Both the position numbers and the translations under genes were made by a program. The notes under the pieces were generated by a model that saw only the letters and a program-made list of their open reading frames with translations, was not told the origin of the DNA and searched no databases. Shown here one piece after another: positions 15,669-59,088 of a DNA stretch of 64,000 bases. The DNA comes from Acidobacteriaceae bacterium (GTDB taxonomy: Bacteria > Acidobacteriota > Terriglobia > Terriglobales > Acidobacteriaceae), in assembly GCA_003160215.1 (NCBI GenBank), contig PLQW01000093.1:40540-104539 (forward strand). The letters run 5' to 3'. The first letter of the stretch is position 1; every line of letters starts with the position of its first letter.

Positions 15669-15709
15669 ACAGGTCCCTTACCGAAGCATTGTTTTTCCCG
15701 CGCAAATAC

Positions 15710-35532: not shown

Positions 35533-35716
35533 CAATTGGCAGTTAGCAACTAGCAACTAGCAACTAGTAACTAGTATTTCAGCAGCTTGGAGCACGCAGT
35601 TTGCAACTAATAATAGGAACATCGAGGCCAAAAATTCGAAGGGATGAAGGCAGCCACGCGCCAGCACTAGCGACCGACTTGCACGGTTTGGCTAATTGCT
35701 AACTGCTAATTGCCAG
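35518..35716. repeat. hairpin cassette between the RND pump and adaptor genes
   Basis: The left array has 8 units (gcaatta gcaacta gcaattg gcagtta gcaacta gcaacta gcaacta gtaacta) at 35518..35574. The right array (ctaattg ctaactg ctaattg ccag) at 35689..35716 is its imperfect reverse complement. The last 4 codons and the TAG stop of the pump gene lie inside the left array. Confidence 0.85.
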
Positions 35717-38468: not shown

Positions 38469-38605
38469 GGGTAGTGCGGACCTTCAGGCCCGCGTGGAGG
38501 GACAGGAAGAAAAAAGGCTTCAGCCGCTGAGGTCGACGACCTCAGCGGCTGAAGCTGGGAATTGTGAGGGCGGCCTTGACGCGGGCCTGAAGGCCCGCAC
38601 TACCC
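38469..38605. repeat. nested compound palindrome between convergent genes
   Basis: The outer 26-nt arms are gggtagtgcggaccttcaggcccgcg and cgcgggcctgaaggcccgcactaccc (1 mismatch); each arm is itself a TGAA/TTCA-loop hairpin. They enclose a perfect 37-nt palindrome, cttcagccgctgaggtcg-a-cgacctcagcggctgaag (38518..38554). Confidence 0.9.
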
Positions 38606-39775: not shown

Positions 39776-39960
39776 CCACAGAGACACAGAGTCACAGAGT
39801 CACAGAGAAAATCTCTTTACCACGGAGGCCACGGAGCGCATGGAGAATTTGAATTTGGGGAACGCGGAGCCCAGGAAATCTACTTTTTAGCTGGCTCTTC
39901 TTGAAATCCGTGGTTAGGGGTTTGCCTTGGACTTTCTCTGTGTCTCTCGTGTCTCTGTGG
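39776..39960. repeat. hairpin cassette with 8-nt arrays
   Basis: The left arm (cacagaga cacagagt cacagagt cacagaga) at 39776..39810 is complementary to the right arm (tttctctgtgtctctcgtgtctctgtgg) at 39933..39960. The interior holds a second word family (ccacggaggccacggagcgc ... tccgtggtt). Confidence 0.85.
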
Positions 39961-41124: not shown

Positions 41125-41589
41125 CTACTTCGACTTGTCGGCTCCGGCGGCCTGCTGCTTCGCCAGCTCGCTATAGCGACGCTGGATCTCTTCCGACGAG
41201 ACGTCCTCGATATGGGTGCCAACCCACCACTGATTGCCTAGAGAATCCTCGACGCCGCCGGTGCGGTCGCCGTAGGCCTGGTTCGCGGGCTCGTGAATGG
41301 GCTTTCCCCCAGCTTCAACCGCGCGCTTGTACACCGCTTCCACGTCCTCCACGTACAGATAGAACATGGCAGGTTTTGGTGTCCACTGGTCGCGGGCCTG
41401 GCCGATCATCAGCATCGAGTTGCCAACGCGCACCTCGGCATGGCTGACACTTCCCTTGTCGTCTGTGTGACGGAAGGTTTCCTCGCCGCCAAAGGCCTTC
41501 TTCAAGAAATCGATCTGCGCCTCCGCGTCCGCCACCGTCAAATAGGGTGTGACCGTGTGGTAGCCGTCTGGAATTGGTTTGACTGCCAT
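41125..41589 (-). CDS. VOC-family (glyoxalase/bleomycin-resistance, PhnB-like) protein
   Basis: MAVKPIPDGYHTVTPYLTVADAEAQIDFLKKAFGGEE... and ...DSLGNQWWVGTH are typical of PhnB-like VOC proteins. ATG 41589 with GAGGAG upstream is preferred over GTG 41607. Confidence 0.8.
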   Translation of the reverse strand: MAVKPIPDGYHTVTPYLTVADAEAQIDFLKKAFGGEETFRHTDDKGSVSHAEVRVGNSMLMIGQARDQWTPKPAMFYLYVEDVEAVYKRAVEAGGKPIHEPANQAYGDRTGGVEDSLGNQWWVGTHIEDVSSEEIQRRYSELAKQQAAGADKSK

Positions 41590-41685
41590 GGCTTTTCTCC
41601 TCACCAAGTTAGATTACCGTTCCCGATATTGTGCCCGATTCTGGCGGGCCCGTGAGTTCCTAATGAAATTCCCGGCATTGTACTG

Positions 41686-41911
41686 CAGTTTCAAGTTTCG
41701 AGTTTCGAGTTAAAGGCCGCTTACAAACGCAGTGATAAAGTTAGTCCGCTCTTTGCGCAGATGACGGAAAAGCATGTCCCTCCACGCGGACTAAAGTCCT
41801 TGGTCGGGATGACAATCTTGTAACAGGTGCGGACAGCAGGTCCCTCCGCTCGGCTCAAGTCCTCGGTCGAAGGCGGGCCACTTGAAACTTGAAACTCGAA
41901 ACCTGAAACTG
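41686..41911. repeat. hairpin cassette upstream of thiS
   Basis: The left arm (agtttca agtttcg agtttcg agtt) and the right arm (cttgaaa cttgaaa ctcgaaa cctgaaa ctg) match as reverse complements at about 24 of 26 positions. The interior holds REP-like modules ending ..gggatgaca. Confidence 0.88.
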
Positions 41912-41916
41912 TAGTT

Positions 41917-42120
41917 ATGCACATCTTCATCAACGGCGAAGACAAGAGCTTTGCCGGTCCTCCCCTGTCGCTAGCGCAACTGATCGAGCGCCTCGGCATG
42001 AAAGGCGACCGCGTCGCAGTCGAACTCAACCGCGAGATCGTCTCGCGTGCGCAGTGGTCCGAGACTTCGCTCAGAGACGGCGATCGGCTGGAGATTGTTC
42101 ATTTTGTCGGCGGGGGATAG
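41917..42120 (+). CDS. thiS: sulfur-carrier protein ThiS
   Basis: 67 aa, MHIFINGE...[10 protein letters not shown]. It has a ubiquitin-like fold pattern and the C-terminal GG. No other thi gene is present in the window. Confidence 0.8.
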
Positions 42121-42123
42121 AAG

Positions 42124-42289
42124 CAGTTTCCAGTCTCCAGTTTCGAGTTGGCACACCGAATTGGGTTCGCCGCCGCAAGAGTCGAGAAACATCAAGCAGG
42201 CTGGCGCCTCTGGGAGATGCCAAGTGCCAAACGCCAAGTGCTAAGTGCGGCTTCCTCCCTCGAAACTTGAAACTCGAAACTCGAAACTT
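42124..42289. repeat. hairpin cassette downstream of thiS
   Basis: Left arm: agtttcc agtctcc agtttcg agtt. Right arm: ctcgaaa cttgaaa ctcgaaa ctcgaaa ctt. The interior carries a gccaagt gccaaac gccaagt gctaagt array (42218..42250). Confidence 0.88.
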
Positions 42290-42407
42290 TTGTTTGTGAA
42301 TCGCCGATGAACCTCCATCTTCCCGCGGTTGACAATGAGCGTTAACGATCACTAAACTCAAATGTTTACCTGCACGTGCTGGAAAGTTTCTGAGTGCTTG
42401 CGCAATC

Positions 42408-42815
42408 ATGCCGGACTTCTACTTCGCCCGATATCTGCCGTTGTTGATTCACGTCCTGGTCGCCGGGGGTGTGGCCTCGGCGATTGTGCTACTCTCCTAT
42501 TTCATCGGCCAGCACAAGTACAACAAATCCAAGATGTCTCCCTACGAATGCGGCATGGAGCCAGTCGGCAACGCCCGTCAGCGCTTCACCGTGAAGTTCT
42601 ACCTGGTAGCGATGCTGTTCATCCTGTTCGACGTGGAAGCCGTGTTCCTCTATCCCTGGGCGGTCGTGCAGCGCGACCTGAAATCCGCAGGCATGGGCAT
42701 GTTCTGGTTCTGGGAGATGCTGGTGTACATCGGCATCGTGCTCGCCGGGTACTGGTATTGCTGGAAGAAGGGCGTACTCGACTGGAACAAACAAGCTAAG
42801 TCCGAGAGGATTTGA
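42408..42815 (+). CDS. nuoA: NADH-quinone oxidoreductase subunit A
   Basis: 135 aa with SPYECGMEP and FDVEAVFLYPWAV. Confidence 0.93.
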   Translation: MPDFYFARYLPLLIHVLVAGGVASAIVLLSYFIGQHKYNKSKMSPYECGMEPVGNARQRFTVKFYLVAMLFILFDVEAVFLYPWAVVQRDLKSAGMGMFWFWEMLVYIGIVLAGYWYCWKKGVLDWNKQAKSERI

Positions 42816-42818
42816 GGG

Positions 42819-43316
42819 ATGGCACTGGAGCCGACGATCACCGACATCGAGCAACTGAAAGATCGTCCTGAACTGGCGCGCCTGCTGGCGTGGAATGCAG
42901 GCGCGATTACGGGCGCCAAGTTCGACCGCAACGAACTCACGATCTGGGTCGACCGCACCGGGCTGCGCGAAGCCTGTCTGACCCTGAAGAACGATCCGCA
43001 GTTGCAGTACAACGCCTTGTCCGACATCACCTGCGTGGACTGGTATCCCAAGGCCCCCCGCTTCGAAGTCGTGTACCAACTGTTCTCCATTCCGAACAAG
43101 AACTACCTGCGCCTGAAGGTGAAGATCTCCGGCGAGGACGCCAGCCTTGACTCGCTAGTTCCGATTTGGTCGGGCGCGGACTTCTTCGAGCGCGAAGTCT
43201 TCGACCTGTTCGGCGTTCGCTTCGACGAGCACCCCAATCTAAAACGCATTATGATGCCCGAGGATTGGGAAGGCCACCCGCTCCGCAAGGATTATCCCGT
43301 CGAGGGCTACCGCTAA
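42819..43316 (+). CDS. nuoC: NADH-quinone oxidoreductase subunit C
   Basis: 165 aa with the 30-kDa subunit motifs (FEVVYQLFS, ADFFEREVFDLFGVRFDEHP, DYPVEGY). It starts 3 nt after the nuoA stop, so there is no room for nuoB. Confidence 0.93.
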   Translation: MALEPTITDIEQLKDRPELARLLAWNAGAITGAKFDRNELTIWVDRTGLREACLTLKNDPQLQYNALSDITCVDWYPKAPRFEVVYQLFSIPNKNYLRLKVKISGEDASLDSLVPIWSGADFFEREVFDLFGVRFDEHPNLKRIMMPEDWEGHPLRKDYPVEGYR

Positions 43317-43318
43317 TC

Positions 43319-44524
43319 ATGGCCCACATGACTCCAACCCCGGTGCTGGATCCGTCCGACGATAAGACGATGGTCCTGAACATGGGCCCGCAACATCCTT
43401 CGACCCATGGCGTCCTCCGGTTGCTCCTTGAGATTGACGGCGAAACCATCGTGCGCATGATGCCCGACATCGGGTATCTGCACACCGGCATCGAGAAGAC
43501 TTGCGAAGCCAAGTTTTACCAGCAGGTCGTGCCCATGACCGACCGCATCGACTATCTCTGCCCCATGACCAACAACCTGGCGTACTGCCTGGCGGTGGAG
43601 AAGTTGCTGGGGCTGGAGATTCCGCCCAAGGCGCAGTGGATTCGCGTCATGTTGAACGAGCTGACCCGCATCAACTCGCACCTGGTGTGGCTGGGCACGC
43701 ACGCCATGGACATCGGCGCCATGACGGTCTTCCTGTATTGCTTCCGCGAACGCGAAGATGTGCTGCGCTTGTTTGAGGCGGTTTCCGGGCAGCGCATGAT
43801 GACGTCGTACTTCCGCATTGGCGGACTGGCGCTGGAGCCGCCACTTGGCTTCTTCGACCGGGTCAAGAGTTTTAACGACCGCTTTCCCGCGAACATCGAC
43901 GAGTACGAGAGCCTGCTGACCAGCAATCCCATTTGGACGGGACGTACCAAGGGCATCGCCCTCCTATCCGCGGAAGATGCCATCGCACTGTGCGCAACCG
44001 GCCCGACGTTGCGGGCCAGTGGTGTCGATGTCGATCTGCGCCGCGACAAGCCGTATAGCGGCTATGAGAAATTCCAGTTCAACGTCCCGGTATCGAACGA
44101 TGGCGATGTCTTTGCGCGTTACGTAGTGCGGGTGCAGGAGCTTCGCGAGTCGCAGAAGATCGTAAAGCAGGCGCTGGAAGGAATTCCAGAAGGCCCGGTG
44201 AAGGCTGACGCTCCCCATGTGGTGCTGCCCGACCGCGAGAAGATGAAGACGCAAATGGAAGCGCTTATCTATCACTTCAAGATCGTGACCGAGGGATTCA
44301 CCGTGCCGGAGGGCGAAGTGTACATGCCGATCGAGTCGCCGCGCGGCGAAATGGGCTACTACGTGGTGAGCGACGGCACCGCCAAGCCGTACCGCGTGCA
44401 CATGCGGTCGCCGTCGTTCGCCAATTTGCAAACACTGCGCAAGATGTGCGAAGGCCGCTTGATCGCCGACGTGGTCGCCGCCATCGGCAGCATCGATATC
44501 GTGCTGGGGGATTGCGATCGGTAG
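43319..44524 (+). CDS. nuoD: NADH-quinone oxidoreductase subunit D
   Basis: MAHMTPTP...NMGPQHPSTHGVLRL...ESPRGEMGYYV...RSPSFANLQ. ATG 43319 is used; the track frame opens earlier, inside nuoC. Confidence 0.96.
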   Translation: MAHMTPTPVLDPSDDKTMVLNMGPQHPSTHGVLRLLLEIDGETIVRMMPDIGYLHTGIEKTCEAKFYQQVVPMTDRIDYLCPMTNNLAYCLAVEKLLGLEIPPKAQWIRVMLNELTRINSHLVWLGTHAMDIGAMTVFLYCFREREDVLRLFEAVSGQRMMTSYFRIGGLALEPPLGFFDRVKSFNDRFPANIDEYESLLTSNPIWTGRTKGIALLSAEDAIALCATGPTLRASGVDVDLRRDKPYSGYEKFQFNVPVSNDGDVFARYVVRVQELRESQKIVKQALEGIPEGPVKADAPHVVLPDREKMKTQMEALIYHFKIVTEGFTVPEGEVYMPIESPRGEMGYYVVSDGTAKPYRVHMRSPSFANLQTLRKMCEGRLIADVVAAIGSIDIVLGDCDR

Positions 44525-44617
44525 CAATTAACAGCTAGCAATTAGCGACTAGTTTAAGCGATTCAGGCTAAGAGCTAAATGCGAATACTAATTGCTAAAT
44601 GCTAGTTGCTAATTGCT
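44523..44617. repeat. hairpin cassette between nuoD and nuoE
   Basis: The left arm (agcaatt aacagct agcaatt agcgact ag) is imperfectly complementary to the right arm (ctaattg ctaaatg ctagttg ctaattg ct). The nuoD TAG stop is the first word of the array. Confidence 0.85.
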
Positions 44618-44622
44618 GGAAA

Positions 44623-45105
44623 ATGAAATTTTCCGACCAACTCGAACAACGCTTCTCCACGATGGTCACGCACTACCCGACCAAGCGCTCCGTCCTGGTT
44701 CCCATGCTGCTCTACATCCAGGACGAAGTCGGCGCGCTGACGGATGAGGCCATCCACGAGGTCGCACAGCGCACAGAACTGTCGGATCTGGAAGTGCGCA
44801 ACGTCATCAGCTACTACTCGATGCTGCGCACGCGTCCGGTTGGCAAGTACAACCTCCAAGTCTGCACCAATGTGAGTTGCCTGCTGCGCGGGGCCGACGA
44901 CATCTTCGAACATTGCAAAAAGAAGCTGGGCATCGGCAACAAGGAATCGACTCCCGACGGGCTGTTCCATCTGGAGGAGGTCGAGTGCATCGGCGCATGC
45001 TCCTGGGCGCCGGCGCTGATGATGAATTACGAGTTTCACGAGAACCTGACGCCCACCAAGATCGACGAGTTGATTGACGGGCTGAAGAAGAAGGAACAGC
45101 AGTAA
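44623..45105 (+). CDS. nuoE: NADH-quinone oxidoreductase subunit E
   Basis: 24-kDa subunit with [2Fe-2S] Cys ligands (CTNVSCLL...CIGAC). ATG 44623 (MKFSDQLEQRF) is used. The track start at 44599 would translate the repeat array (MLVANCWK). Confidence 0.92.
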   Translation: MKFSDQLEQRFSTMVTHYPTKRSVLVPMLLYIQDEVGALTDEAIHEVAQRTELSDLEVRNVISYYSMLRTRPVGKYNLQVCTNVSCLLRGADDIFEHCKKKLGIGNKESTPDGLFHLEEVECIGACSWAPALMMNYEFHENLTPTKIDELIDGLKKKEQQ

Positions 45106-45106
45106 T

Positions 45107-45212
45107 CGCCATTCGCTTTTCGCTTTTCGCCAGAGGGCTCACGCGAGTGATTGCTAAAGGCTAAGAGCTGAAGGCTAAAAGCGAAAGGCGAATAGCAAAC
45201 AGCGAATAGCGG
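45107..45212. repeat. hairpin cassette between nuoE and nuoF
   Basis: The left array is cgccatt cgctttt cgctttt cgcc. The right array has 8.5 units (gctaaag gctaaga gctgaag gctaaaa gcgaaag gcgaata gcaaaca gcgaata gcgg) at 45153..45212 and ends 5 nt before the nuoF ATG. Confidence 0.85.
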
Positions 45213-45217
45213 TTTTC

Positions 45218-46525
45218 ATGGCATATCTCGTTTCCCATCCCGATGAGGTCAAGGTCGTATCCAAGCGCTTCGGCATGGGCGCGACCAATCTCGATCGCTA
45301 TCTCGAACTGGACGGCTACAAGGCCGTGCAGAAAGCCATCTCGATGGGCCCGGACGCCATTATCAACGAAGTCAAGGCGTCGAATCTGCGTGGCCGTGGC
45401 GGCGCCGGCTTCCCCACCGGATTGAAGTGGTCGTTCGTACCCAAGCAGTCGGCCAAGCCGAAGTACGTGCTGTGCAACGGCGACGAGAGCGAGCCCGGCA
45501 CCTGCAAGGACCGTCTTATCTTCGAACACGATCCGCACGCCGTCATCGAAGGAGTGATGATTGCGGCGCTCGCCGTCGGCGCCAAATCCGGCTACATCTA
45601 CGTGCGCGGCGAGTATCGCTACCTGCTGGAGATCATGGAAAAGGCCGTGGCCGACGCTTACGCGCGCGGCTTCATCGGCAATAACATCTTCGGCTCGGGC
45701 ATTGACCTCGAGATCTTCACTCATTCCGGCGCAGGCGCATACGAAGTCGGCGAAGAGTCGGCGCTGATGGAGTCGCTCGAAGGCAAACGCGGCATACCGC
45801 GCATTCGTCCTCCCTTCCCGGCAGTGGTCGGTCTGTGGGGCGGCCCAACCGTGATCAACAATGCCGAGACCCTGGCCAGCGTGCCGCACATCATCCTGGG
45901 CGGCGGCGAATGGTTCGCCAATCTGGGCACACCCAGAAACGGTGGGACCCGCCTGTTCTGCATGAGCGGCGAACTCGAAAAGCCCGGCGTGTACGAGCTG
46001 CCCATGGGCTACAACCTGAAGAAGATGATCTACGAAGTTTCGGGCGGCATGACCAAGGGTAGGAATTTGAAGGGCGTGGTGCCGGGTGGGTCGTCGGTAC
46101 AGATTCTCACGCCTGACGAAATCGATGTCGCCATGGACTTCGACTCGATGATGAAGGCGGGCTCGATGCTCGGCTCCGGCGGCGTGATCGTGCTCGACGA
46201 CCAGATGTGCATCGTGAGGTTCGCTCTGCGCGTGGCCAAGTTTTACCAGCACGAGAGCTGCGGCTGGTGCATCCCATGCCGCGAAGGTACCGACTGGATG
46301 AAGAAGACGCTGACGCGCTTTCATGCCGGCGGCGGCGCGGCCAAGGACATTGACAACCTGAAGTACCTGGCGGAGAACATGCTGGGTCGCACCTTCTGTC
46401 CGCTGGGCGACGCGGCGGCGATGCCGATCATTTCCTACATTCAGAAGTTTCGTAAGGAATTTGAGGACCACCTCGACGGCAAGCCATGTCCGTATGAGAA
46501 AGCGGCAGAGCCGGCATTGGTGTGA
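45218..46525 (+). CDS. nuoF: NADH-quinone oxidoreductase subunit F
   Basis: 435 aa with the FMN/NADH site GRGGAGFPTG, GAGAYEVGEESAL and the N3 cluster ESCGWCIPCREG. Confidence 0.97.
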   Translation: MAYLVSHPDEVKVVSKRFGMGATNLDRYLELDGYKAVQKAISMGPDAIINEVKASNLRGRGGAGFPTGLKWSFVPKQSAKPKYVLCNGDESEPGTCKDRLIFEHDPHAVIEGVMIAALAVGAKSGYIYVRGEYRYLLEIMEKAVADAYARGFIGNNIFGSGIDLEIFTHSGAGAYEVGEESALMESLEGKRGIPRIRPPFPAVVGLWGGPTVINNAETLASVPHIILGGGEWFANLGTPRNGGTRLFCMSGELEKPGVYELPMGYNLKKMIYEVSGGMTKGRNLKGVVPGGSSVQILTPDEIDVAMDFDSMMKAGSMLGSGGVIVLDDQMCIVRFALRVAKFYQHESCGWCIPCREGTDWMKKTLTRFHAGGGAAKDIDNLKYLAENMLGRTFCPLGDAAAMPIISYIQKFRKEFEDHLDGKPCPYEKAAEPALV

Positions 46526-46594
46526 GTTGGCTTTTAGCTTTTGGCTCTTAGCTCTTAGCAAGCGAACCGGGATGACAGTTTGATTGAAAGCTCG

Positions 46595-46668
46595 GATGGG
46601 CTGGAGACAATAGGGGTCCTTCGACTCCGCATTCGCAAACAGCGCGAATGCTCCGCTCAGGATGACAA
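46595..46668. repeat. about 75-nt dispersed repeat, copy A
   Basis: ggatgggctggagacaataggggtccttcgactccgcattcgcaaacagcgcgaatgctccgctcaggatgacaa, with an internal CATTCGC...GCGAATG hairpin. Copy B at 49601..49673 is in the same orientation with few substitutions. Confidence 0.88.
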
Positions 46669-46749
46669 GGTTGTTGTTGGTACAAGGTTGTTGTTGGTAC
46701 AAGGTTGCTGTCGTACAAGGTTGTTGTTGCTAGAAGGTTATTGTTGCTA
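46666..46749. repeat. 17-nt tandem repeat, 5 copies
   Basis: Units are caaggttgttgttggta (x2 exact), caaggttgctgtcgta, caaggttgttgttgcta and gaaggttattgttgcta. Confidence 0.9.
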
Positions 46750-46883
46750 ACTGAGAGTGGATGGCTGAGAGCTGACGGCTATCGCTCGCGACAAGAATTT
46801 GATTGCTAAGAGCTAAAGGCTAAGAGCTAAAAGCTAAAAGCTAAAAGCCCCTAGCGAAAGGCGAACAGCGAATAGCGGTTTCC

Positions 46884-49253
46884 ATGGCAGATGTAACCCT
46901 TACTGTTGACGGCAAGAAACTCACGGTTCCCGCGGGGACGCTCCTCATTGAGGCCTGCAAGAGCACGGGCATCGAGGTGCCGTCTTTCTGCTATTACCCC
47001 GGCCTGTCGCTGCAAGGCGCCTGCCGCATGTGCCTGGTGGACATCGAAAAGATGCCCAAGCTGCAGACCGCGTGCACCACGCCGGTCGCTGAGGGCATGG
47101 TGGTCACCACCGAGAGCGACAAGATCAAGCAGGCGCGCAAGGCCATGCTCGAGATGGTGCTCGCCAACCATCCGCTCGATTGCCCGGTGTGCGACGCCGG
47201 CGGCGAATGCGAACTGCAGGACATGACCTTCAAGTACGGCGCGGCCGAATCGAAGTTCATGGACATGAAGAACCACCGCGACGAGCAGCAATGGTCGCCG
47301 GTGGTGTACTTCGACCGTCCGCGTTGCATCCTCTGCTATCGCTGCATTCGCGTTTGCGGTGAAGGCATGGATGTCTGGGCGCTGGGGATTCAGAACCGGG
47401 GTTCCGGCTCAATTATTGCGCCTAACAAGCAAGATCATTTGGAGTGCGAAGAGTGCGGCATGTGCATTGACATCTGCCCGGTCGGCGCGCTCACCTCGGG
47501 CGCTTATCGCTACAAGACGCGGCCGTGGGAGATGAAGCACGTGGGCACCGTCTGCACCCATTGCGGCGACGGCTGCAAGACCACGCTCGGCGTGCGCCGC
47601 GCCGACACCGGCATGGAGATTGTGCGCGGCGACAACCGCGATAAGAGCGGCATCAATGGCGACTTCCTCTGCATCAAGGGGCGCTACGCCTTCGACTTCG
47701 CCAACAGCGGCGATCGCATCCAGCAGCCGCTCATCAAGCACGAAGGTAAGTTCGTTACTGCGACCTGGGAACAAGCGCTCGAACGCATCGCCTCCCGGTT
47801 CAAGGAAGTGCTGGCCAGCGACGGCCCGAGCGCCGTCGGCGTGATCGGCTCCAACCGCACCAGCAACGAAGAAAATTACTTGCTGCAAAAATTCGCGCGC
47901 CTGGGTTTGGGCACCAACAACATTGACCACCATCGCACCGCGGACTTTCCTGCATTCGCTTCGGCGCTGGCTGGCAAGGCCAATGCCACCGCTTCCATGC
48001 GTGACGTTTTCGACGCTCCCGCGATCCTGCTGATCGGTAACAATCCTACTGACCAGCATCCGCTGCTGGCGTGGCAGATTCGCACCAACGTCCGTCTGCA
48101 TCGCGCCAAACTTTATGTGGTGAATTCGTATCCCATCAAGCTGCGCCGCCAGGCGACCGCCTTCGCGCAGATCGCGCCCGGCTCTGAAGGCAGCCTGGTG
48201 CAGTTCCTCGCCGGAAACGACGCAGCCGCCGACGCCGTCATCGGTCCGCAGTTCACGCGTGAGGCCCTGTCGCAGATGCGGGAGGCGCTGAAGAACGAGA
48301 AGGACTTGGTTGTTATTTTCGGATCGGAGTTGCGCGGCAACGACGTCACGGCGCTGGTGAACTTCGGCCTGGCGCAGGGCGCAAAGTTCATCTGCCTGGG
48401 CGATTACGCCAACTCGCGCGGCGCCGCCGACATGGGCCTTTATCCCGACATGCTGCCGGGTTACGCTCCCGTTTCGAGTGCGACCAGCTTTCACGAGGAT
48501 TGGGTCGACGAAATTCCCCGGTCGCCGGGCATGAACCTGCTACAGATGATGGATGCGGCCAAGGACGGCAAGCTGAAAGCGCTGTATGTCGTCGGCTCCA
48601 ACCCTGTCGCACGCTACAGCGTCGATCCCTTCGCCCTGTCGAAGGCCTTCGTCGTGGTGCAAGACATGTTCCTCACCGAGACAGCCGGCATTGCTGACGT
48701 GGTGCTGCCCCTCGCGAATGCTTACGAAAAAGGCGGGACTGTCACAAACACTTGCGGCGACGTACAGATGCTGAAGAAAGCAGGTGAGTTTGCGGGCGTG
48801 CGCAACGATTTCGAGTGCATTGTTCGCATCGCCGATCGGATGGGATACGACGTGCACAAGTTGGTGCCGTTTGGCGGCGGAGGCACGCGCGCCGACATGG
48901 GCCAGAGCCGTGGCGCGCAATCCGGCGAAGCCGACCGGCACGCGGTGTGGCTAACTGAGCACAACCTGGAGCCCAAGATGAGCCCCTACGATCCCACCGC
49001 GATGCTGGACGAAATTCAGCGGTTGGTCCCGGGGTATGACATCTCGCGGCTCGGTCTGCTCAGCGGTCACGACGAGCATACGCAACTCGTGCAGATCACC
49101 GGCGCTACGGGCACGGGACATCCGGAACTCGTGCTGCCCTCCAACGACACGCTGTTCACCTCGGGCACGCTGGGCCGGTACTCGCCCACCTTGAACACCG
49201 TGATGGAGCGCTACGGTACGACGCCGGCCGATAAAGAGATCGCGGCGGATTAG
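46884..49253 (+). CDS. nuoG: NADH-quinone oxidoreductase subunit G
   Basis: 789 aa with the N-terminal [2Fe-2S] site CYYPGLSLQGACRMCLV, HPLDCPVCDAGGECELQ, CILCYRCIRVC and CGMCIDICPVGA, followed by a molybdopterin-like domain. Confidence 0.95.
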   Translation: MADVTLTVDGKKLTVPAGTLLIEACKSTGIEVPSFCYYPGLSLQGACRMCLVDIEKMPKLQTACTTPVAEGMVVTTESDKIKQARKAMLEMVLANHPLDCPVCDAGGECELQDMTFKYGAAESKFMDMKNHRDEQQWSPVVYFDRPRCILCYRCIRVCGEGMDVWALGIQNRGSGSIIAPNKQDHLECEECGMCIDICPVGALTSGAYRYKTRPWEMKHVGTVCTHCGDGCKTTLGVRRADTGMEIVRGDNRDKSGINGDFLCIKGRYAFDFANSGDRIQQPLIKHEGKFVTATWEQALERIASRFKEVLASDGPSAVGVIGSNRTSNEENYLLQKFARLGLGTNNIDHHRTADFPAFASALAGKANATASMRDVFDAPAILLIGNNPTDQHPLLAWQIRTNVRLHRAKLYVVNSYPIKLRRQATAFAQIAPGSEGSLVQFLAGNDAAADAVIGPQFTREALSQMREALKNEKDLVVIFGSELRGNDVTALVNFGLAQGAKFICLGDYANSRGAADMGLYPDMLPGYAPVSSATSFHEDWVDEIPRSPGMNLLQMMDAAKDGKLKALYVVGSNPVARYSVDPFALSKAFVVVQDMFLTETAGIADVVLPLANAYEKGGTVTNTCGDVQMLKKAGEFAGVRNDFECIVRIADRMGYDVHKLVPFGGGGTRADMGQSRGAQSGEADRHAVWLTEHNLEPKMSPYDPTAMLDEIQRLVPGYDISRLGLLSGHDEHTQLVQITGATGTGHPELVLPSNDTLFTSGTLGRYSPTLNTVMERYGTTPADKEIAAD

Positions 49254-49258
49254 AAGAA

Positions 49259-49303
49259 GTGATTAGTGGTTAGTGGCTAGTTTCAAAGTTTCGAGTTTCG
49301 AGT
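49259..49303. repeat. 7-nt tandem arrays just after nuoG
   Basis: gtgatta gtggtta gtggcta gtttcaa agtttcg agtttcg agtagg. Two word families are joined without losing the 7-nt phase. Confidence 0.85.
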
Positions 49304-49426
49304 AGGCAGCAACTGGTTCTGTAACAAGAGCAGACGTATCGGGCCCGAGTCATGAGTGCTCAGACCTTGAGATTGTGGCGCGATCTCGTGTCGATTCGCC
49401 GCAGTGGAAGGCAGTACGCAAGAATC

Positions 49427-49508
49427 AGCCCCGAATGGGGCGGAAGAGCTTAGCCCAGCGCTTCAGCGCTGGGTGCGCAGTTAGAGGATTCGAGTCCCGT
49501 AGGGACGG
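49427..49508. repeat. three-hairpin repeat module, copy B
   Basis: cagccccgaatggggcggaagagcttagcccagcgcttcagcgctgggt...gagtcccgtagggacggc. It has the same three stems as 15583..15668. Confidence 0.85.
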
Positions 49509-49600
49509 CAGAGAACCGCAGATCCCTCGACTCAGTCGCCGTAGCGACCTCGATCGAGATGACACGCATGATTCGAGGCGGCAGTTGAATTAAGAGAGCG

Positions 49601-49673
49601 GGTGGGCTGGACAGTATAGGGGTCCTTCGACTTCGCATTCGCAAAGGCGGCGAATGCTCCGCTCAGGATGACA
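49601..49673. repeat. about 75-nt dispersed repeat, copy B
   Basis: gggtgggctggacagtataggggtccttcgacttcgcattcgcaaaggcggcgaatgctccgctcaggatgacaa; see 46595..46668. Confidence 0.88.
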
Positions 49674-49724
49674 ACTCTGCTCTTCCGGCGTGCAGCGAAG
49701 GGCGAAAAACGAACGGCGATTTAA

Positions 49725-49757
49725 CTGACGGGCTGAAAGCTGAGTGCTGATAGCTAC
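49725..49757. repeat. 7-nt array abutting the nuoH start codon
   Basis: ctgacgg gctgaaa gctgagt gctgata gctac, followed immediately by ATG 49758. The same word family occurs at 40025..40052 and 46751..46785. Confidence 0.82.
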
Positions 49758-50792
49758 ATGGGCATTGGGACGTACATCCTGGTTTCGCTGGTCAAGATCG
49801 CGATCGCGCTCCTTGTCCTGCTGACGGCCGTGGCCTACACCACGTTGCTGGAGCGCAAAGTGGTTGCCCACATACAGAACCGGTGGGGACCGTCGCGGGT
49901 GGGGCCATTCGGCATCTGGCAGCCGCTCGCCGACGGCTTAAAGTTTATCTTTAAGGAAGACCTCACACCGCCTTATGTTAATAAGCCCTTGTACCTGCTG
50001 GCTCCAGTCGTCGCCTTGACCACAGCGCTGACCTCCATCGCGGTCATTCCAATTGGTCCATGGATCAAGCTGGGCAGCATCAACACGCCGTTGCAGATCG
50101 CCGACGTCAACATTGGGCTGCTGATCATTTTAGGCGTCACCTCGGTCGGCGTGTATGGAGTGGCGCTGGCGGGGTGGTCGTCGAACAGCAAGTATTCGAT
50201 GCTCGGCGGCTTGCGCGCCTCGGCCCAGATGGTGAGCTACGAAATCGCTCTCGGCTTGTCGCTGATCGGTGTGCTCATCTTTGCCGGCAGCTTCAGCCTG
50301 CGCGACATTGTCGATTCGCAAGCGGGCACGTGGCTGGGCTTCATCCCTAAATGGAATTTGTTCAAGGGACAGTTTGTCGCCTTCTTTATTTACATCATGG
50401 CGGCCTACGCGGAGACCAACCGTATCCCCTTCGATCTGCCGGAGGCGGAGACCGAACTGGTCGCCGGATACCACACCGAGTACAGCTCGATGAAGTTCGC
50501 CATGTTCTTCATGGCCGAGTACGCCAACATGGTGACGGTCGCGTGCCTGGCCTCGATTTTGTTTTTGGGCGGATGGTCGGGGCCGGTCTTCGGTCCGCCG
50601 ATTGTGCAGTCGCTGCTGCCGGTGTTCTGGTTTGCGTTGCGCGTGTTTGCCTTCATGTTTATCTACATCTGGGTCCGCGGCACGTTGCCGCGTTTCCGCT
50701 ATGACCAGCTCATGGCCTTCGGCTGGAAGTTTCTTCTGCCGCTGGCCATCGCCAATATCGTCGTCACCAGTCTGGTCGTGGCGCTGAAGTGA
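49758..50792 (+). CDS. nuoH: NADH-quinone oxidoreductase subunit H
   Basis: 344 aa, 8 TM helices, with ERKVVAHIQNRWGP, SNSKYSMLGGLR, AETNRIPFDLPEAETELVAGYHTEYS and RGTLPRFRYDQLM. Confidence 0.96.
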   Translation: MGIGTYILVSLVKIAIALLVLLTAVAYTTLLERKVVAHIQNRWGPSRVGPFGIWQPLADGLKFIFKEDLTPPYVNKPLYLLAPVVALTTALTSIAVIPIGPWIKLGSINTPLQIADVNIGLLIILGVTSVGVYGVALAGWSSNSKYSMLGGLRASAQMVSYEIALGLSLIGVLIFAGSFSLRDIVDSQAGTWLGFIPKWNLFKGQFVAFFIYIMAAYAETNRIPFDLPEAETELVAGYHTEYSSMKFAMFFMAEYANMVTVACLASILFLGGWSGPVFGPPIVQSLLPVFWFALRVFAFMFIYIWVRGTLPRFRYDQLMAFGWKFLLPLAIANIVVTSLVVALK

Positions 50793-50913
50793 AGCAGCAA
50801 TTAGCAATTAGCAATAGCGGATTGCGGTTTTCAGGTTCGAGGAGTTCCCTTATTTCACGGCTTGAGTCGTTTTTGCTAAGTGCCAAATGCTAAATGCCAA
50901 GTGCCTAAACGCC
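50793..50913. repeat. repeat spacer between nuoH and nuoJ, where nuoI would normally be
   Basis: The left array is agcagca attagca attagca atagcgg attgcgg. The right array is gctaagt gccaaat gctaaat gccaagt gcctaaa cgcc. The two are only loosely complementary. Confidence 0.8.
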
Positions 50914-50964
50914 TTGGGATGAGTTGCACCCCGGCAAAGCAGTCTTGCCGGTAAACGGATAACC

Positions 50965-51486
50965 ATGTTGCCTCTTGTTCTCTTTTTCATCTTCGCTGCG
51001 CTGTGTGTGGGTGGGGCGATCAACCTGCTGGTGCAGAAGCACCCCATCAACAGCGCCCTGTCGTTGATTGTGGTGATGGGTTCGCTGGCCCTGATTTACC
51101 TGCTGCTGGGCGCGGAATTTGTGGCCGCCGTGCAGGTCATTGTGTATGCCGGCGCGGTGATGGTGTTGTTCGTCTTTGTCATCATGCTGCTGAACGCCGG
51201 AGTGGAAGAGCGCACCGAGCATGCCAGTCGTGTCGCCACGGTGCTGGGCGTCCCAGGACTCATTATTGGATTGAGCATCGCAGTCTGGGTGGTCAGCCAT
51301 CTCGCCGGGCTGGACCGCATCGCCATCGGCGGGCCCACGGTAATGAATGGCAGCGACGTGTTCGGAAATCCCCAAGCCATCGGGCGTCTGTTGTTCCGCG
51401 ACTTCCTGCTGCCTTTCGAGGTGACGTCGCTGTTGATCCTGATCGCCATCATGGGCGCCGTGGTGCTGGCGCGGAGGGAGGAATAA
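50965..51486 (+). CDS. nuoJ: NADH-quinone oxidoreductase subunit J
   Basis: 173 aa, 5 TM helices, with AEFVAAVQVIVYAGAVMVLFVFVIML and FEVTSLLILIAIMGAVVL. Confidence 0.9.
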   Translation: MLPLVLFFIFAALCVGGAINLLVQKHPINSALSLIVVMGSLALIYLLLGAEFVAAVQVIVYAGAVMVLFVFVIMLLNAGVEERTEHASRVATVLGVPGLIIGLSIAVWVVSHLAGLDRIAIGGPTVMNGSDVFGNPQAIGRLLFRDFLLPFEVTSLLILIAIMGAVVLARREE

Positions 51487-51789
51487 ATGGTCCCTCTTTC
51501 CTATTACCTGGTGTTGAGCGCGATCCTGTTTGGCTGTGGAGTTGCAGGCTTCCTGATCAAGCGCAACATCATCACCATTTTCCTGTCGATTGAGTTGATG
51601 CTGAACGGCGTCAATCTTTCCTTCGTTGCCTTCGCCGCGCAACTCAAGTCGCTCGACGGTCACATTTTCGTGTTCTTCGTGATGGTAGTGGCTGCCGCGG
51701 AAGCGGCCGTGGGACTGGCCATCATCATCTCGGTATTCCGTACCCGCGAGACCCTGAATGTGGATCGCGTGAACTTGCTGAAGCTGTAA
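51487..51789 (+). CDS. nuoK: NADH-quinone oxidoreductase subunit K
   Basis: 100 aa, 3 TM helices, with [10 protein letters not shown] and [23 protein letters not shown]. Confidence 0.93.
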
Positions 51790-51845
51790 GGGCGCTCCGC
51801 CGCGCACTGGTACTGGGGCGCACTGAGTGTCCCGCGAGACAAGTT

Positions 51846-53825
51846 ATGCACTTGTGGATCATTCCGTTACTGCCGCTGGCCGGCGCCGCCATCAACGGGC
51901 TGTTAGGCAAGCGCTTCGCCAGGGGACTGGTGACGACCATCGCGCTGGGCTCCACGGCGCTGGCGTTTGCCATGGCCTTGTGGGTGGCCGCGCAGTTCGC
52001 CGGATTGCCGCCGGACCAGATCCCGCACATCGAGCGCTATGCCACATGGTTGGGCGCGGGCTCGTTCTCCGCGGACTTCGGCATCTACCTCGACCAGCTC
52101 TCGCTGGTGATGTTGCTGGTGGTCACCGGCGTCGGCTTCCTCATCCACGTTTATTCCGTCGGTTACATGGAGCATGAAGGCGGCTACTACCGCTATTTTT
52201 CCTATCTCAACCTCTTCATGTTCTTCATGCTCACCCTGGTGCTGGCGAACAATTATTTGCTGATGTTCGTGGGCTGGGAGGGCGTGGGCCTGGCATCATA
52301 CTTGCTGATCGGATTCTGGTTCCTCAAGAAGTCGGCGGCCGACGCGGGCAAGAAAGCCTTCATCACCAACCGGGTCGGCGACTTCGGATTCCTGATCGCG
52401 CTCTTCCTGCTGATCAAGCACTTCGGAACGCTGCAGTACGACAGTCTGTGGCCGCTCATCGGTAAGTACCCGATCGAATCCGGCGCTGCTGGCTTGTTGA
52501 CGGCGATTGGCCTGCTGATGCTGGTCGGTGCAACCGGCAAGTCCGCGCAGATTCCACTGTATGTCTGGCTGCCGGACGCGATGGAAGGCCCCACGCCGGT
52601 TTCCGCACTAATTCACGCCGCGACCATGGTGACTGCAGGCGTGTACATGGTGGCCCGCTCGCATCTGGTGTTTAACCGCGCGCCCGACGCCGCAATGGCG
52701 GTCGCGATTATCGGCACGCTGACTGCGATCTTCGCTGCGTCGATTGGCATCGTGCAAACCGACATTAAGAAGGTGCTGGCCTATTCCACCATTTCGCAGC
52801 TTGGTTACATGTTCATGGCCTGCGGCGTGTTGGACTACGTGGGCGGAATCTTTCACCTGGTGACACACGCCTTCTTCAAGGCGCTGCTGTTCCTCGCGGC
52901 GGGCTCGGTGATTCACGGCCTCGGTGGCGAACAGGACATGCGCAACATGGGCGGCCTGCGAAAGCATCTTCCCTACACCTTCTGGTGCATGACCATCGCG
53001 ACCTTTGCAATCGCTGGCTTGCCGCCCTTCGCCGGCTTCTTCTCCAAAGACCGGATTCTGTGGTCCGCCTGGAGCAATGGCTATCGCAGCCTGTGGCTGA
53101 TCGGCGTGATCACCGCCGGCATGACCTCGTTCTACATGTTCCGGCTATGGTTCCTCACGTTCTTTGGTGACTACCGCGGCCCCAATCCTGAGGCGGCCGG
53201 TCACGCGCACGATGCCCACGCTGGCGGTAGCCACGGGCACGGTGCTCCACATGAGAGTCCGATGGTGATGGTAGTCCCGCTGATAATTCTTGCCCTGCTC
53301 TCGTTCATTGGCGGATGGGTTGGCGTTCCCCACTCTCTCAAGGGATCTGATCACTTCGACGCCTTTCTTTCGCCGGTTTTCCACGCGCCGGCGGCTCCCG
53401 CCGAAGGAGCTCAGGAGCAGGGCGAATCCACCACGGAGCTGGCGTTCACTGGTATCTCGGTGTCGATAGCCCTGCTTGGATTCCTGAGCGCCTGGTGGCT
53501 GTATTACAAGCGGCCAGAGTTGCCCGGAAGGATGGCAAAGGCTGCTGGCGGGCTCTATACCTTCGTGCTCGACAAGTACAAGGTGGACGAACTCTACGGG
53601 GCGGTATTCATACAACCGCTGATCGCGCTGTCTTTGAACGTCTTCTGGAAAGGGATCGATCGCGGGCTGATCGATGGCGCAGTGGACGGCAGCGCCGCCG
53701 GTGCGCGTGAAGTCTCCGATGAAATGCGCCAGATGCAATCCGGCAATATCCGTTCCTACGCGGGCTGGGTCGCCGTCGGCGCGGCGGCCGTGATTGCCTT
53801 CATGGTGTGGAGGGGTGTGCGATGA
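51846..53825 (+). CDS. nuoL: NADH-quinone oxidoreductase subunit L
   Basis: 659 aa antiporter-like subunit with WEGVGLASYLLIGFW, KSAQIPLYVWLPDAMEGPTPVSALIHAATMV and a C-terminal lateral-helix region. Confidence 0.96.
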   Translation: MHLWIIPLLPLAGAAINGLLGKRFARGLVTTIALGSTALAFAMALWVAAQFAGLPPDQIPHIERYATWLGAGSFSADFGIYLDQLSLVMLLVVTGVGFLIHVYSVGYMEHEGGYYRYFSYLNLFMFFMLTLVLANNYLLMFVGWEGVGLASYLLIGFWFLKKSAADAGKKAFITNRVGDFGFLIALFLLIKHFGTLQYDSLWPLIGKYPIESGAAGLLTAIGLLMLVGATGKSAQIPLYVWLPDAMEGPTPVSALIHAATMVTAGVYMVARSHLVFNRAPDAAMAVAIIGTLTAIFAASIGIVQTDIKKVLAYSTISQLGYMFMACGVLDYVGGIFHLVTHAFFKALLFLAAGSVIHGLGGEQDMRNMGGLRKHLPYTFWCMTIATFAIAGLPPFAGFFSKDRILWSAWSNGYRSLWLIGVITAGMTSFYMFRLWFLTFFGDYRGPNPEAAGHAHDAHAGGSHGHGAPHESPMVMVVPLIILALLSFIGGWVGVPHSLKGSDHFDAFLSPVFHAPAAPAEGAQEQGESTTELAFTGISVSIALLGFLSAWWLYYKRPELPGRMAKAAGGLYTFVLDKYKVDELYGAVFIQPLIALSLNVFWKGIDRGLIDGAVDGSAAGAREVSDEMRQMQSGNIRSYAGWVAVGAAAVIAFMVWRGVR

Positions 53826-55405
53826 ATTTCATCAACAACAACATCCTCACCATCGTTATTTTTCTGCCGCTGGCGGGAGCGATCCTGCTGGTGTTCTTCC
53901 CCCGCCGCCATCGCGATATCCGCTATTTCGCGCTGGCGGTCTCGCTGATTACCCTGCTCGCTTCACTGCATTTGCCGTGGTACCTGGTTCGGGGACAGAG
54001 CGGCTTCCAGTTCGAGCGGAACATCCCATGGATCGCCCACCCCAACATTCATTACCATCTGGGCATTGATGGCATTTCCATGTGGCTGGTCATCCTGACC
54101 ACCTTCCTGATGCCGCTGTGCGTACTCATCTCGTGGAACTCCATCGGCGATCGGGTGAAGGAATTCTTCATCCTGATGCTGGTGCTCGAGAGCGCGATGA
54201 TCGGCGTTTTCGTCGCGCTCGACCTGTTTCTCTTCTACTTCTTCTGGGAAGCCACGCTCATTCCCATGGCGTTGATTATCGGCATGTACGGGCACGGACG
54301 GAAAATCTACGCCTCCGTGAAGTTCTTCCTCTACACCATGATCGCGTCGGTGTTCATGCTGGCGGCAATTCTATGGCTGTATGCGCGCACCGGCAGCTTT
54401 GACTTCGTAACCATCCAGAGCATGATTCAGGGCGGCCAGGTCCCCGGCTTTGGAAACGCAGCGCTCTGGCTGTTCCTCGGCTTCTTTGTGGCCTTCGCGG
54501 TGAAGGTACCGCTCTTCCCGTTACACACCTGGCTGCCCGACGCGCACGTCGAAGCACCCACCGCGGGTTCCGTGCTGCTGGCAGGCGTGCTGTTGAAAAT
54601 GGGCACCTACGGTTTGTTGCGCTTCAACCTTGGGCTCTTCCCCGACCAGGCGCGGCGCAACGCTCCCTGGATTATCGCGCTCGCCATTATCGGCATCATT
54701 TACGGCGCCCTGGTGGCCATGGTTCAGCCCAACATCAAGCGGCTGGTCGCCTACACCTCGGTCAGCCACCTAGGCTTTGTGGTGCTGGGCATCTTCAGCT
54801 TCACCCAACTTGGAATGGATGGCGCCGTATATCAGATGCTGAGCCACGGCATCTCCACCGGCGCGCTGTTCATGTTGCTGGGCATGGTCTACGATCGCCG
54901 CCACACCTACGACATCAACGAATACGGCGGACTGGCCACACCCATGCCGGTGTACGCAACCTTCTTCGCGTTCATCATGCTCTCGTCGGTGGGCTTGCCG
55001 CTGTTGAATGGCTTCATCGGCGAGTTCCTGGTGCTGAGTGGCGCGTTCCAGGCGAGGCAGCTCTATGGCATTCTGGCGGCAACCGGCGTCATCTGGAGCG
55101 CGTGCTATTTGCTGTGGATGTATCAGCGCGTGTTCTACGGAGCCGTCAGCAATCCGGCGAACAATTCGTTGCGCGACCTCGACGCTCGCGAGCGCGTCTC
55201 CTTGTGGCCGCTGGCGATTGCGGCGCTGGTCATGGGAGTTGCGCCCATGCTCTGGCTGCACTCCATTGATCCCGCCGTTGCCGCGACTCTACGGCAATTT
55301 TCCAGCGCTGTCCAGGCGCACGCAGCCCATGCTCCAGGATCGTTGGTACGCGCCGACTTTACGCGTAATGGGATGCAAGCTCTACTGCAGGTGATCGGAC
55401 GATGA
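53822..55405 (+). CDS. nuoM: NADH-quinone oxidoreductase subunit M
   Basis: About 527 aa with FFWEATLIPM, KVPLFPLHTWLPDAHVEAPTAGSVLLAGVLLKMG. ATG 53822 overlaps the nuoL stop (ATGA), and GGAGGGG lies upstream. Confidence 0.95.
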   Translation: MNFINNNILTIVIFLPLAGAILLVFFPRRHRDIRYFALAVSLITLLASLHLPWYLVRGQSGFQFERNIPWIAHPNIHYHLGIDGISMWLVILTTFLMPLCVLISWNSIGDRVKEFFILMLVLESAMIGVFVALDLFLFYFFWEATLIPMALIIGMYGHGRKIYASVKFFLYTMIASVFMLAAILWLYARTGSFDFVTIQSMIQGGQVPGFGNAALWLFLGFFVAFAVKVPLFPLHTWLPDAHVEAPTAGSVLLAGVLLKMGTYGLLRFNLGLFPDQARRNAPWIIALAIIGIIYGALVAMVQPNIKRLVAYTSVSHLGFVVLGIFSFTQLGMDGAVYQMLSHGISTGALFMLLGMVYDRRHTYDINEYGGLATPMPVYATFFAFIMLSSVGLPLLNGFIGEFLVLSGAFQARQLYGILAATGVIWSACYLLWMYQRVFYGAVSNPANNSLRDLDARERVSLWPLAIAALVMGVAPMLWLHSIDPAVAATLRQFSSAVQAHAAHAPGSLVRADFTRNGMQALLQVIGR

Positions 55406-57374: not shown

Positions 57375-57455
57375 TTCTTTCTCCTTATGAATCGCTGCCA
57401 GTGGGTGGTTGACGTTCACCGTGCTGACGCCCTCACGCTGGCAGCAAACTTGTAA

Positions 57456-57612
57456 ATAGCAGTTAGCAGTTAGCAATTAGCTCTTGGCCTTTGGCGATTT
57501 GATCGCGCTTGCTGGAAGCGCCAGCCCGCTTCTTCGATCCCTTTACCATCAGAACGCCCTGGCATTCGCCCGTCAAGACTAAGCTAACTGCTAATTGCTA
57601 GTTGCTAATTGC
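57456..57612. repeat. hairpin cassette between atpB and atpE
   Basis: The left array (agcagtt agcagtt agcaatt agctctt ggccttt ggcg) is at 57456..57496. The right array (ctaagct aactgct aattgct agttgct aattgc) is at 57579..57612. The gcaatta-type parts are reverse complements. Confidence 0.85.
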
Positions 57613-57616
57613 TTCT

Positions 57617-58923: not shown

Positions 58924-58995
58924 ACCACGGAGACACGGAGGGCACGGAGTTTTCGTTTTCATTGAGGTTCTCCGTGATCTCCGTCCCTCCGTGGT
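58924..58995. repeat. hairpin of CACGGAG-type words between atpZ and atpI
   Basis: accacggagacacggagggcacggag and ctccgtgatctccgtccctccgtggt pair at about 22 of 26 positions with a ~20-nt loop. A perfect CATGGGCC-gca-GGCCCATG hairpin follows at 59013..59031. Confidence 0.85.
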
Positions 58996-59088
58996 TGATC
59001 TTCATTCCTGTGCATGGGCCGCAGGCCCATGTGACACTCAGGACTGTAACTGACCCCGCAGTTATCGCAGCTGCGGAGCCAGCCGTCG

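Follow-up and report, generated by a model that had tools for sequence, protein, structure and literature searches.

In many bacteria, long repeats of short units are reported to be heptanucleotides more often than any other class (Mrazek 2007, as relayed in PMC4679880). In filamentous cyanobacteria, the hupS–hupL gap contains hairpins of short tandemly repeated repetitive (STRR) sequences, 'usually made up of 7 bp repeats'. These sequences, of unknown function, have been suggested to make transcripts more stable or to couple translation (PMC2670836). The TAACTGA repeats, which use a single word, comprise 169 direct sets and one inverted set (PMC4679880). Here we characterize the intergenic spacers of the nuo operon in a window of 64,000 nucleotides from an Acidobacteriaceae bacterium (assembly GCA_003160215.1, contig PLQW01000093.1, positions 40,540–104,539; coordinates below count from the first base of the window). 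The elements that make up these spacers are an acidobacterial counterpart of the cyanobacterial STRR and heptanucleotide 'long simple sequence repeat' hairpins. A previous reading of the same DNA from its letters (hereafter, the sequence-only reading) had known of no description of heptamer-array cassettes, a statement that must be withdrawn given the heptamer-repeat hairpins known in cyanobacteria (PMC2670836) and the arrays known upstream of start codons that lack a Shine–Dalgarno (SD) sequence (PMC4679880).

The spacers are probably built from dispersed, fast-evolving, non-coding palindromic elements that turn over at the DNA level and are tolerated at junctions at which the downstream start has no SD sequence. 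The arms of these elements are arrays of degenerate heptanucleotide GC-N5 words—AGCAATT/GCTAATT, CGCTTTT/GCGAAAA, GCTTTTA/GCTAAAA and AGTTTCG/CGAAACT—that are nearly confined to intergenic DNA, and the two arrays of a spacer are almost always inverted copies of one word family. In the D–E, E–F and F–G spacers (designated by the flanking nuo genes), the arrays fold the entire spacer into an imperfect hairpin of 25–35 bp that reaches from the upstream stop codon to near the next start codon. Nested within the loops are other small repeats, namely the Acido-Lenti-1 module, a 93-nt module and a 17-nt tandem repeat.

Pfam matches place nuoA (42408–42815), C, D, E, F, G, H, J, K and L in one plus-strand cluster. 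The gene order of the cluster (42408–56838) is A-C-D-E-F-G-H-J-K-L-M-N, without nuoB between nuoA and nuoC or nuoI between nuoH and nuoJ, and is identical in 80 related loci. The spacers measure 98 nt (D–E), 112 nt (E–F), 358 nt (F–G), 504 nt (G–H) and 172 nt (H–J), exactly the lengths given by the sequence-only reading, and the remaining junctions are tight, as it had also stated (A–C, 3 nt; C–D, 2 nt; J–K, 0 nt; K–L, 56 nt; L–M and M–N, overlapping). Across the window, 31 sliding 28-nt segments had at least 24 of 28 self-matches at lag 7; lag 14 gave 8 such segments, the remaining lags between 1 and 15 gave none, and the heptamer arrays are also listed by Tandem Repeats Finder. The arrays had been described as keeping strict 7-nt phase even when the word changes; phase is indeed kept across word changes over nine units on the 3′ side of E–F and eleven units on that of F–G, and 'strict' is slightly overstated because of one-base slips in the D–E 3′ arm and the G–H 5′ arrays.

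The proposed inverted pairing of the arms was borne out for D–E (24 nt at 83%), E–F (24 nt at 88%) and F–G (31–40 nt at 83–94%). Folded as RNA, each of these spacers forms a single long hairpin (D–E, −40.6 kcal/mol and z −5.9; E–F, z −2.9; F–G, z −4.5 with a closing stem of ~34 bp). The D–E 3′ arm belongs to a dispersed AGCAATTAGCAACT family, the segment of the E–F 3′ side that pairs with the 5′ arm is 45173–45196, and the F–G 3′ arm runs on, in phase, into a GCGAAAG/GCGAATA leader array that stops 6 nt before the nuoG ATG. The G–H spacer has arrays at both ends that are mutually non-complementary and is unclosed (fold z −0.2), with a 3′ array leader that is kept in close relatives, and pairing in H–J is only partial (fold z −1.6). 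Reuse of interior modules, also reported earlier, is real: one G–H module recurs elsewhere in the window with a 53-nt core at 94% identity, and the 93-nt module is common to F–G and G–H at 84% identity (coordinates in Table 1). Inverted heptamer pairs close five more spacers of the window (at dnaJ, at an AcrB-like gene, on both sides of thiS and at atpB–atpE), and at least 12 of its spacers carry heptamer arrays.

We compared these spacers with those of 80 nuo loci from relatives (together 1.26 Mb, labelled L001 onward), a sample that is centred on nuo and whose members are phylogenetically related; the window's NuoF is 97% identical to that of Candidatus Korobacteraceae/Acidobacteriaceae metagenome-assembled genomes, which places the host in the Terriglobales. 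The sample contains 143 arrays of period 7, as against 19 of period 8 and no more than 20 of any other period, and shuffled controls contain none of periods 6–12. Although coding sequence makes up 79% of the DNA, it contains just 12 of 229 arrays. Of the pairs of consecutive arrays that share a spacer, 42 are inverted and one is direct. The D–E, E–F, F–G, G–H and H–J spacers range from gene overlap to more than 1 kb across the relatives. Folding statistics were derived from 268 spacers of 50–260 nt in 80 species (this range excludes some very long or negative spacers, for example, G–H in L026, L053 and L077, that arose artefactually from split nuoG matches). Median fold z-scores of D–E, E–F and F–G were −4.8 to −5.6, with ~28–30 bp spanning the spacer; the first paired base was located at a median of 3 nt past the stop codon and the last at a median of 7 nt before the start codon. 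Approximately 70% of the mid-length D–E, E–F and F–G spacers were strongly folded.

Arm words vary by lineage and some have period 8 (GCTAATT, CGCTTTT, GATTGNT, CAGATTT, GTAATTGN and CACAGAGG). Arms are clearly periodic in just 49 of 126 strong hairpins; others are palindromes that resemble repetitive extragenic palindromic (REP) sequences. Hairpins of CACAGAGG, which are related to the 8-nt inverted pairs of the window described below and contain an SD-like GGAGG, occupy nuo junctions of more distant relatives. GTAG-tagged REP-like palindromes, GGTAG(A/T)GCGGACCTTCAGG(T/C)CCGCG..., are found as inverted dimers at 38469–38605 of the window and in the E–F spacers of six relatives (L007, L011, L012, L016, L019 and L020), and coexist with heptamer hairpins, in some species at the same nuo junctions. 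A metagenome scan with the query (GCTARYT)3 recovered arrays on contigs of 26–69% G+C; none of the 48 arrays on acidobacteria-like contigs was coding, and many had an inverted partner 40–300 nt away. Far longer AGCAATT...GCTAATT arrays are present on contigs of ~50% G+C (L179, 1130–1260; L133, 11200–11720; L178, 1500–1720), in some of which both arrays abut to give near-perfect long palindromes.

The arms are both dispersed and labile. The 24-mer AGCAATTAGCAACTAGCAATTAGC is present at three unlinked loci of the window when one mismatch is allowed (chance expectation, zero) and, without any mismatch, in ten other loci. Complementarity of an arm to its own partner has a median of 0.83, compared with 0.53 for arms of other junctions in the same genome, and both arms were therefore born or kept together. 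Within the stems, G·T and A·C mismatches are equally common (103 and 114, respectively), without an excess of G·U, and no compensatory change was detected among 20 pairs in ten orthologous E–F hairpins (covariation term, +1.18). Between species with 95–97% NuoF identity, one arm may hold anywhere from 2 to 9 copies of AGCAATT while the opposite arm shows no corresponding change, and F–G array words have been replaced outright. Comparison of orthologous junctions, as the sequence-only reading had proposed, revealed filled and empty sites among close relatives: the H–J site is empty (17 nt) in L003 and filled in the window and in L004, L005 and L006, and no target-site duplication was found between these filled and empty sites. 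Copies at non-orthologous sites have loops that bear no relation to one another. T and G predominate in the 5′ arm (93:27 and 77:35; 18:5 in the metagenome sample), a bias that we considered and rejected as a signal of transcription direction; because a hairpin of the form [X..rc(X)] reads alike on both strands, the bias cannot tell which strand is transcribed and shows only a preference for one configuration.

In one sub-clade of the relatives, nuo loops or spacers contain genes, all in nuo orientation and at orthologous positions. These are a HicB-like antitoxin paired with an upstream small open reading frame (ORF) in F–G, a 23S-rRNA-intervening-sequence protein (PF05635) in E–F and two further small ORFs, one of 166 aa without a Pfam match and one that is weakly DUF3658-like and lies within CGCTTTT/GCGAAAA arms. 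Gene-bearing junctions are F–G in L001, L009, L012, L013, L015 and L020; E–F in L017; D–E in L009, L013, L016, L017 and L020; and K–L in L013, L017, L020 and L018. The 462-aa K–L ORF of L018 presumably resembles a type II NADH dehydrogenase.

SD cores are rare upstream of nuoF (1 of 72), nuoG (4 of 34), nuoE (7 of 40) and nuoJ (0 of 27), as against 43 of 65 and 49 of 64 for the tightly joined cistrons nuoD and nuoK, respectively. A conserved array leader stops 4–9 nt before the ATG of several cistrons. The leader copies at 45153–45226 (nuoF) and 46819–46892 (nuoG) are 80% identical over 74 nt that include the first codons (...GCGAATAGCGGTTTYCATGGCA), suggesting that leaders may be copied or converted between junctions.

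On the reading that we hold to be probable, the elements would arise by copy-and-paste or conversion of arm sequences combined with replication slippage of the 7-nt units, would turn over at the DNA level rather than being maintained as a conserved RNA structure, and would persist at junctions with an SD-less downstream cistron. A self-folding insert could keep the stop and start codons physically close and could keep a long untranslated stretch structured and hence less exposed to Rho or RNases. Effects on mRNA stability or translation would then be a by-product, perhaps co-opted at some junctions. Several points weigh against this account. Array density is 1.6 per kb in nuo spacers and 0.37 per kb in neighbouring intergenic DNA, and a purely neutral model does not predict this approximately fourfold difference. 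One array leader of ~35 nt recurs before five different nuo cistrons in L017, and the arrays in nuo spacers are start-adjacent in 81 cases and stop-adjacent in 31; these sequence features suggest that the arrays may help to initiate translation. We identified neither a transposase nor a target-site duplication nor any other means of copying, that inserts are tolerated because they fold is something that we infer, and the sample counts are not independent because the relatives share phylogeny. The fourfold enrichment in nuo spacers and the recurring leader leave some probability to a functional reading.

One such functional account, which is that of the sequence-only reading and which we regard as unlikely, is that the spacers are dedicated intercistronic RNA elements, selected signals for mRNA processing or stabilization comparable to REP elements or to selective RNA processing and stabilization, that set the subunit ratios of complex I, ATP synthase and efflux systems. 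Strong hairpins span the spacers, are enriched in nuo and are also present in the atpB–atpE and efflux operons, all of which encode multi-subunit complexes; stem-loop-controlled stoichiometry is established in another bacterium (PMC4423207), and transcript stabilization is one of the roles proposed for STRR hairpins (PMC2670836). The stems nevertheless lack the G·U excess and the covariation of a conserved RNA, arm lengths are unmatched and the junctions of close relatives are empty or carry different words. G–H and H–J are unclosed, and metagenome arrays are found between convergent or divergent genes approximately in proportion to those contexts. Nor are the spacers enriched in signals of transcription: 15 terminator sites (GC-rich stem plus U-tract) were found compared with 10.0 ± 3.6 expected, with no enrichment in spacers—the sole plus-strand candidate inside a spacer, at 50857, is weak—and a promoter scan likewise revealed no enrichment in spacers. 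Neither the stem mismatches nor the covariation analysis nor these signals lend indirect support to a role in processing, stability or stoichiometry. The best sigma-70-like site of the region (42329–42358; TTGACA, 18 nt, TAAACT) lies ~50 nt upstream of nuoA and downstream of the hairpins that flank thiS.

A device for translation initiation, to which we give a real though small chance, would use the start-adjacent array as a leader that works without an SD sequence and to which S1, a cold-shock protein or some other RNA-binding protein might bind, with the array past the upstream stop masking it and so coupling translation. The absence of an SD core at the downstream starts and the start-adjacent bias described above are in line with such a device, as is a leader, TTTGGCTAATTGCTAGTTGCTAATTGCTGSTTYY-ATG, that precedes nuoE, F, G, H and J in various species and all five in L017; TAACTGA arrays upstream of SD-less starts are analogous (PMC4679880), and coupling of translation is among the roles suggested for STRR hairpins (PMC2670836). 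A simple ribosome-unmasking model gained no support from a thermodynamic test, however: with a ribosome footprint on the stop codon held single-stranded, the predicted accessibility of the leader was not raised at any of the five window junctions (from 0.09 to 0.07 at D–E), and pairing between the repeated arms can resume in a shifted register. Arrays of the same word in the metagenome sample are stop-adjacent in ~22 cases and start-adjacent in ~11, the asymmetry is reversed at H–J and G–H, and nuoF and nuoG lack an SD core also where the spacer is short and array-free.

It is improbable that the elements are non-autonomous transposable cassettes of the miniature inverted-repeat transposable element (MITE) type, in which the arrays would be transposase-recognized terminal inverted repeats and the variable interior their cargo. 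Near-identical arm sequences of 24–31 nt at unlinked loci, filled and empty sites among relatives, defined termini (GAAGCAGCAATTAGC...GCTAATTGCTGCTTC) and ORFs enclosed by arms (for example, K–L in L013, L017 and L020) would all be expected of such cassettes. A classical MITE is disfavoured because no target-site duplication distinguishes the compared filled and empty sites and because different copies do not have related loops; in addition, solo arrays are common and no transposase was seen in the window. The cargo ORFs are at orthologous positions within a single sub-clade, and therefore look like single old loop insertions rather than moving cassettes. The suggestion of the sequence-only reading that the spacers are composite, possibly mobile or recombination-generated structural elements agrees with the dispersed arm families, the filled and empty junctions and the nested loops; a classical MITE is unsupported.

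A more elaborate possibility, which we consider quite improbable, is that these soil bacteria have a cassette system of their own in which the paired arrays, far from being passive repeats, act as the functional termini, marking safe insertion points between cistrons, looping out cargo (repeats, toxin–antitoxin genes and small ORFs) and replacing the SD sequence for the downstream start; were this true, an essential operon could carry cargo and yet retain coupled expression. The chance that the arrays reflect assembly or sequencing artefacts, which the sequence-only reading had named as a refutation, or chance low-complexity sequence is practically nil, because 80 independent assemblies, long contigs and a complete chromosome among them, show the same architecture at orthologous junctions, and the shuffled controls yielded neither arrays of periods 6–12 nor matches to the 24-mer.

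The interior module of G–H contains an Acido-Lenti-1 motif (Rfam RF01687; 49427–49473, minus strand), which scores 49.4 bits against a gathering threshold of 37 and is antisense to the nuo operon. With two further copies, the motif occurs three times in 64 kb, at the two loci given in Table 1 and at 29000–29150, inside a three-hairpin repeat of ~95 nt. It behaves like a dispersed-repeat module, unlike a single-copy small RNA gene. Neither the gathering-threshold scan of the whole window nor an E-value scan of 41500–51100 gave any Rfam match to the heptamer arrays, and only the interior Acido-Lenti-1 was matched; a mir-759 match to the D–E hairpin was far below the Rfam threshold and was rejected.

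Outside the nuo spacers, the AcrB-like ORF (32374–35532) runs into an AGCAATT array (35517–35532), the TAG of which is its stop codon. A 67-aa ThiS-family gene (41917–42120), located directly upstream of nuoA, is flanked on both sides by an AGTTTCG/CGAAACT hairpin, an arrangement also present in the close relatives L001–L006. Two further inverted pairs, at 39777–39959 and 58926–58999, consist of 8-nt tandem units (CACAGAGA/TCTCTGTG and CACGGAG/CTCCGTG) and have the same architecture as the heptamer hairpins.

Table 1 Heptamer arrays and nested repeat modules of the nuo spacers and other spacers of the window.
Feature	Position	Strand	Description
TTGGCTT...GCTAAAA inverted pair	24535–24625	+	Directly 3′ of dnaJ
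AGCAACT...GCTAATT inverted pair	35517–35713	+	Junction of AcrB-like gene and membrane-fusion gene
AGTTTCG...CTTGAAA inverted array pair	41687–41910	+	Closes spacer upstream of thiS
CAGTTTC...CTCGAAA inverted array pair	42124–42288	+	Closes thiS–nuoA spacer; GCCAAGT array inside
D–E 5′ arm	44522–44552	+	TAGCAAT-type heptamer array; nuoD stop TAG is the first triplet of the array
D–E 3′ arm	44588–44617	+	CTAATTG/GCTAATT array; last base 5 nt before nuoE ATG (44623)
E–F 5′ arm	45108–45131	+	CGCTTTT-type array; final part is conserved inner motif CGCCAGAG
E–F 3′ side	45153–45211	+	Nine in-phase units, GCTAAAG..GCGAAAG..GCGAATA; stops 6 nt before nuoF ATG
F–G 5′ arm	46527–46566	+	GCTTTTA/GGCTCTT array; begins 2 nt past nuoF stop
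93-nt repeat module, F–G	46576–46668	+	Nested in F–G loop; other copy at 49582–49674
17-nt tandem repeat ACAAGGTTGTTGTTGGT, 4.9 copies	46665–46746	+	Nested in F–G loop
F–G 3′ side	46798–46877	+	GCTAAGA/GCTAAAA arm at 46798–46849, partner of 46527–46566
G–H 5′ arrays	49258–49303	+	AGTGGTT then AGTTTCG; no complementary partner at 3′ end of spacer
Three-hairpin repeat module with Acido-Lenti-1 motif, G–H	49422–49515	-	Other copy at 15579–15680
93-nt module, second copy, G–H	49582–49674	+	
G–H 3′ array	49716–49754	+	GCTGAAA/GCTGAGT/GCTGATA; stops 3 nt before nuoH ATG
H–J 5′ array	50796–50815	+	AGCAATT, 2.9 copies (2 to 9 in relatives); begins 3 nt past nuoH stop
H–J 3′ array	50874–50913	+	TGCTAAA/TGCCAAG; partial complementarity to H–J 5′ array
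AGCAATT...GCTAACT inverted pair	57446–57619	-	atpB–atpE junction, both genes on minus strand

If this description holds, Terriglobales would extend the occurrence of heptamer-repeat hairpins between co-transcribed genes to a second phylum, unrelated to the first. As abundant soil bacteria, some of which are in culture, they would also make the 35-year-old question of STRR function approachable by comparison. A constant architecture with differing words and periods separates what is constrained (the stop-to-start hairpin and the periodic arms) from what is unconstrained (the sequence). In practical terms, the nuo spacers provide hypervariable strain markers; short-read assemblies are likely to be broken at them and, because one array supplies a stop codon, gene callers are likely to be misled. 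An essential respiratory operon evidently tolerates kilobase-scale inserts, including toxin–antitoxin genes.

Among known systems, MITEs (Correia and Nezha) resemble these elements in their inverted termini, long hairpins, dispersal and presence/absence polymorphism, whereas no target-site duplication was found for the heptamer elements, the loops of which are unrelated among non-orthologous copies and which have no known parent insertion sequence. REP sequences and bacterial interspersed mosaic elements—palindromes tagged with GTAG or CGTC (PMC3733652)—are likewise small, extragenic, found within operons, arranged in mosaic clusters and species-specific; the heptamer arms differ in carrying no GTAG or CGTC tag, in being internally repetitive and in their variable length. 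The TAACTGA repeats of marine Beggiatoaceae and some Cyanobacteria and Bacteroidetes (MacGregor 2015, PMC4679880) share the placement of heptamer arrays a few nucleotides upstream of SD-less starts, at essential genes; here many words are used, usually with an inverted copy past the upstream stop, and a lone TAACTGA is present in the G–H 3′ array. The heptanucleotide repeats of Mrazek et al. 2007, as relayed in PMC4679880, are also non-coding, with polymerase slippage proposed as their origin, but are direct arrays in that account, to which inverted-pair hairpins and positions at gene ends appear not to belong. Literature searches of limited coverage found no prior description in Acidobacteria, which is weak evidence of absence. 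The closest likeness is to the STRR, which are tandem 7-bp units, intergenic, dispersed, able to fold into hairpins between co-transcribed genes (hupS–hupL and nif) and variable among close relatives. The units of STRR1–3 are of the CCCCAGT type. The present elements differ in phylum (Acidobacteria, Terriglobales) and in unit words, which here are degenerate GC-N5; stop-to-start inverted pairing and the nesting of repeats and genes in loops are quantified here, and we know of no such quantification for STRR. Because words and host differ, the acidobacterial elements are not members of the STRR sequence families; they are the same kind of element.

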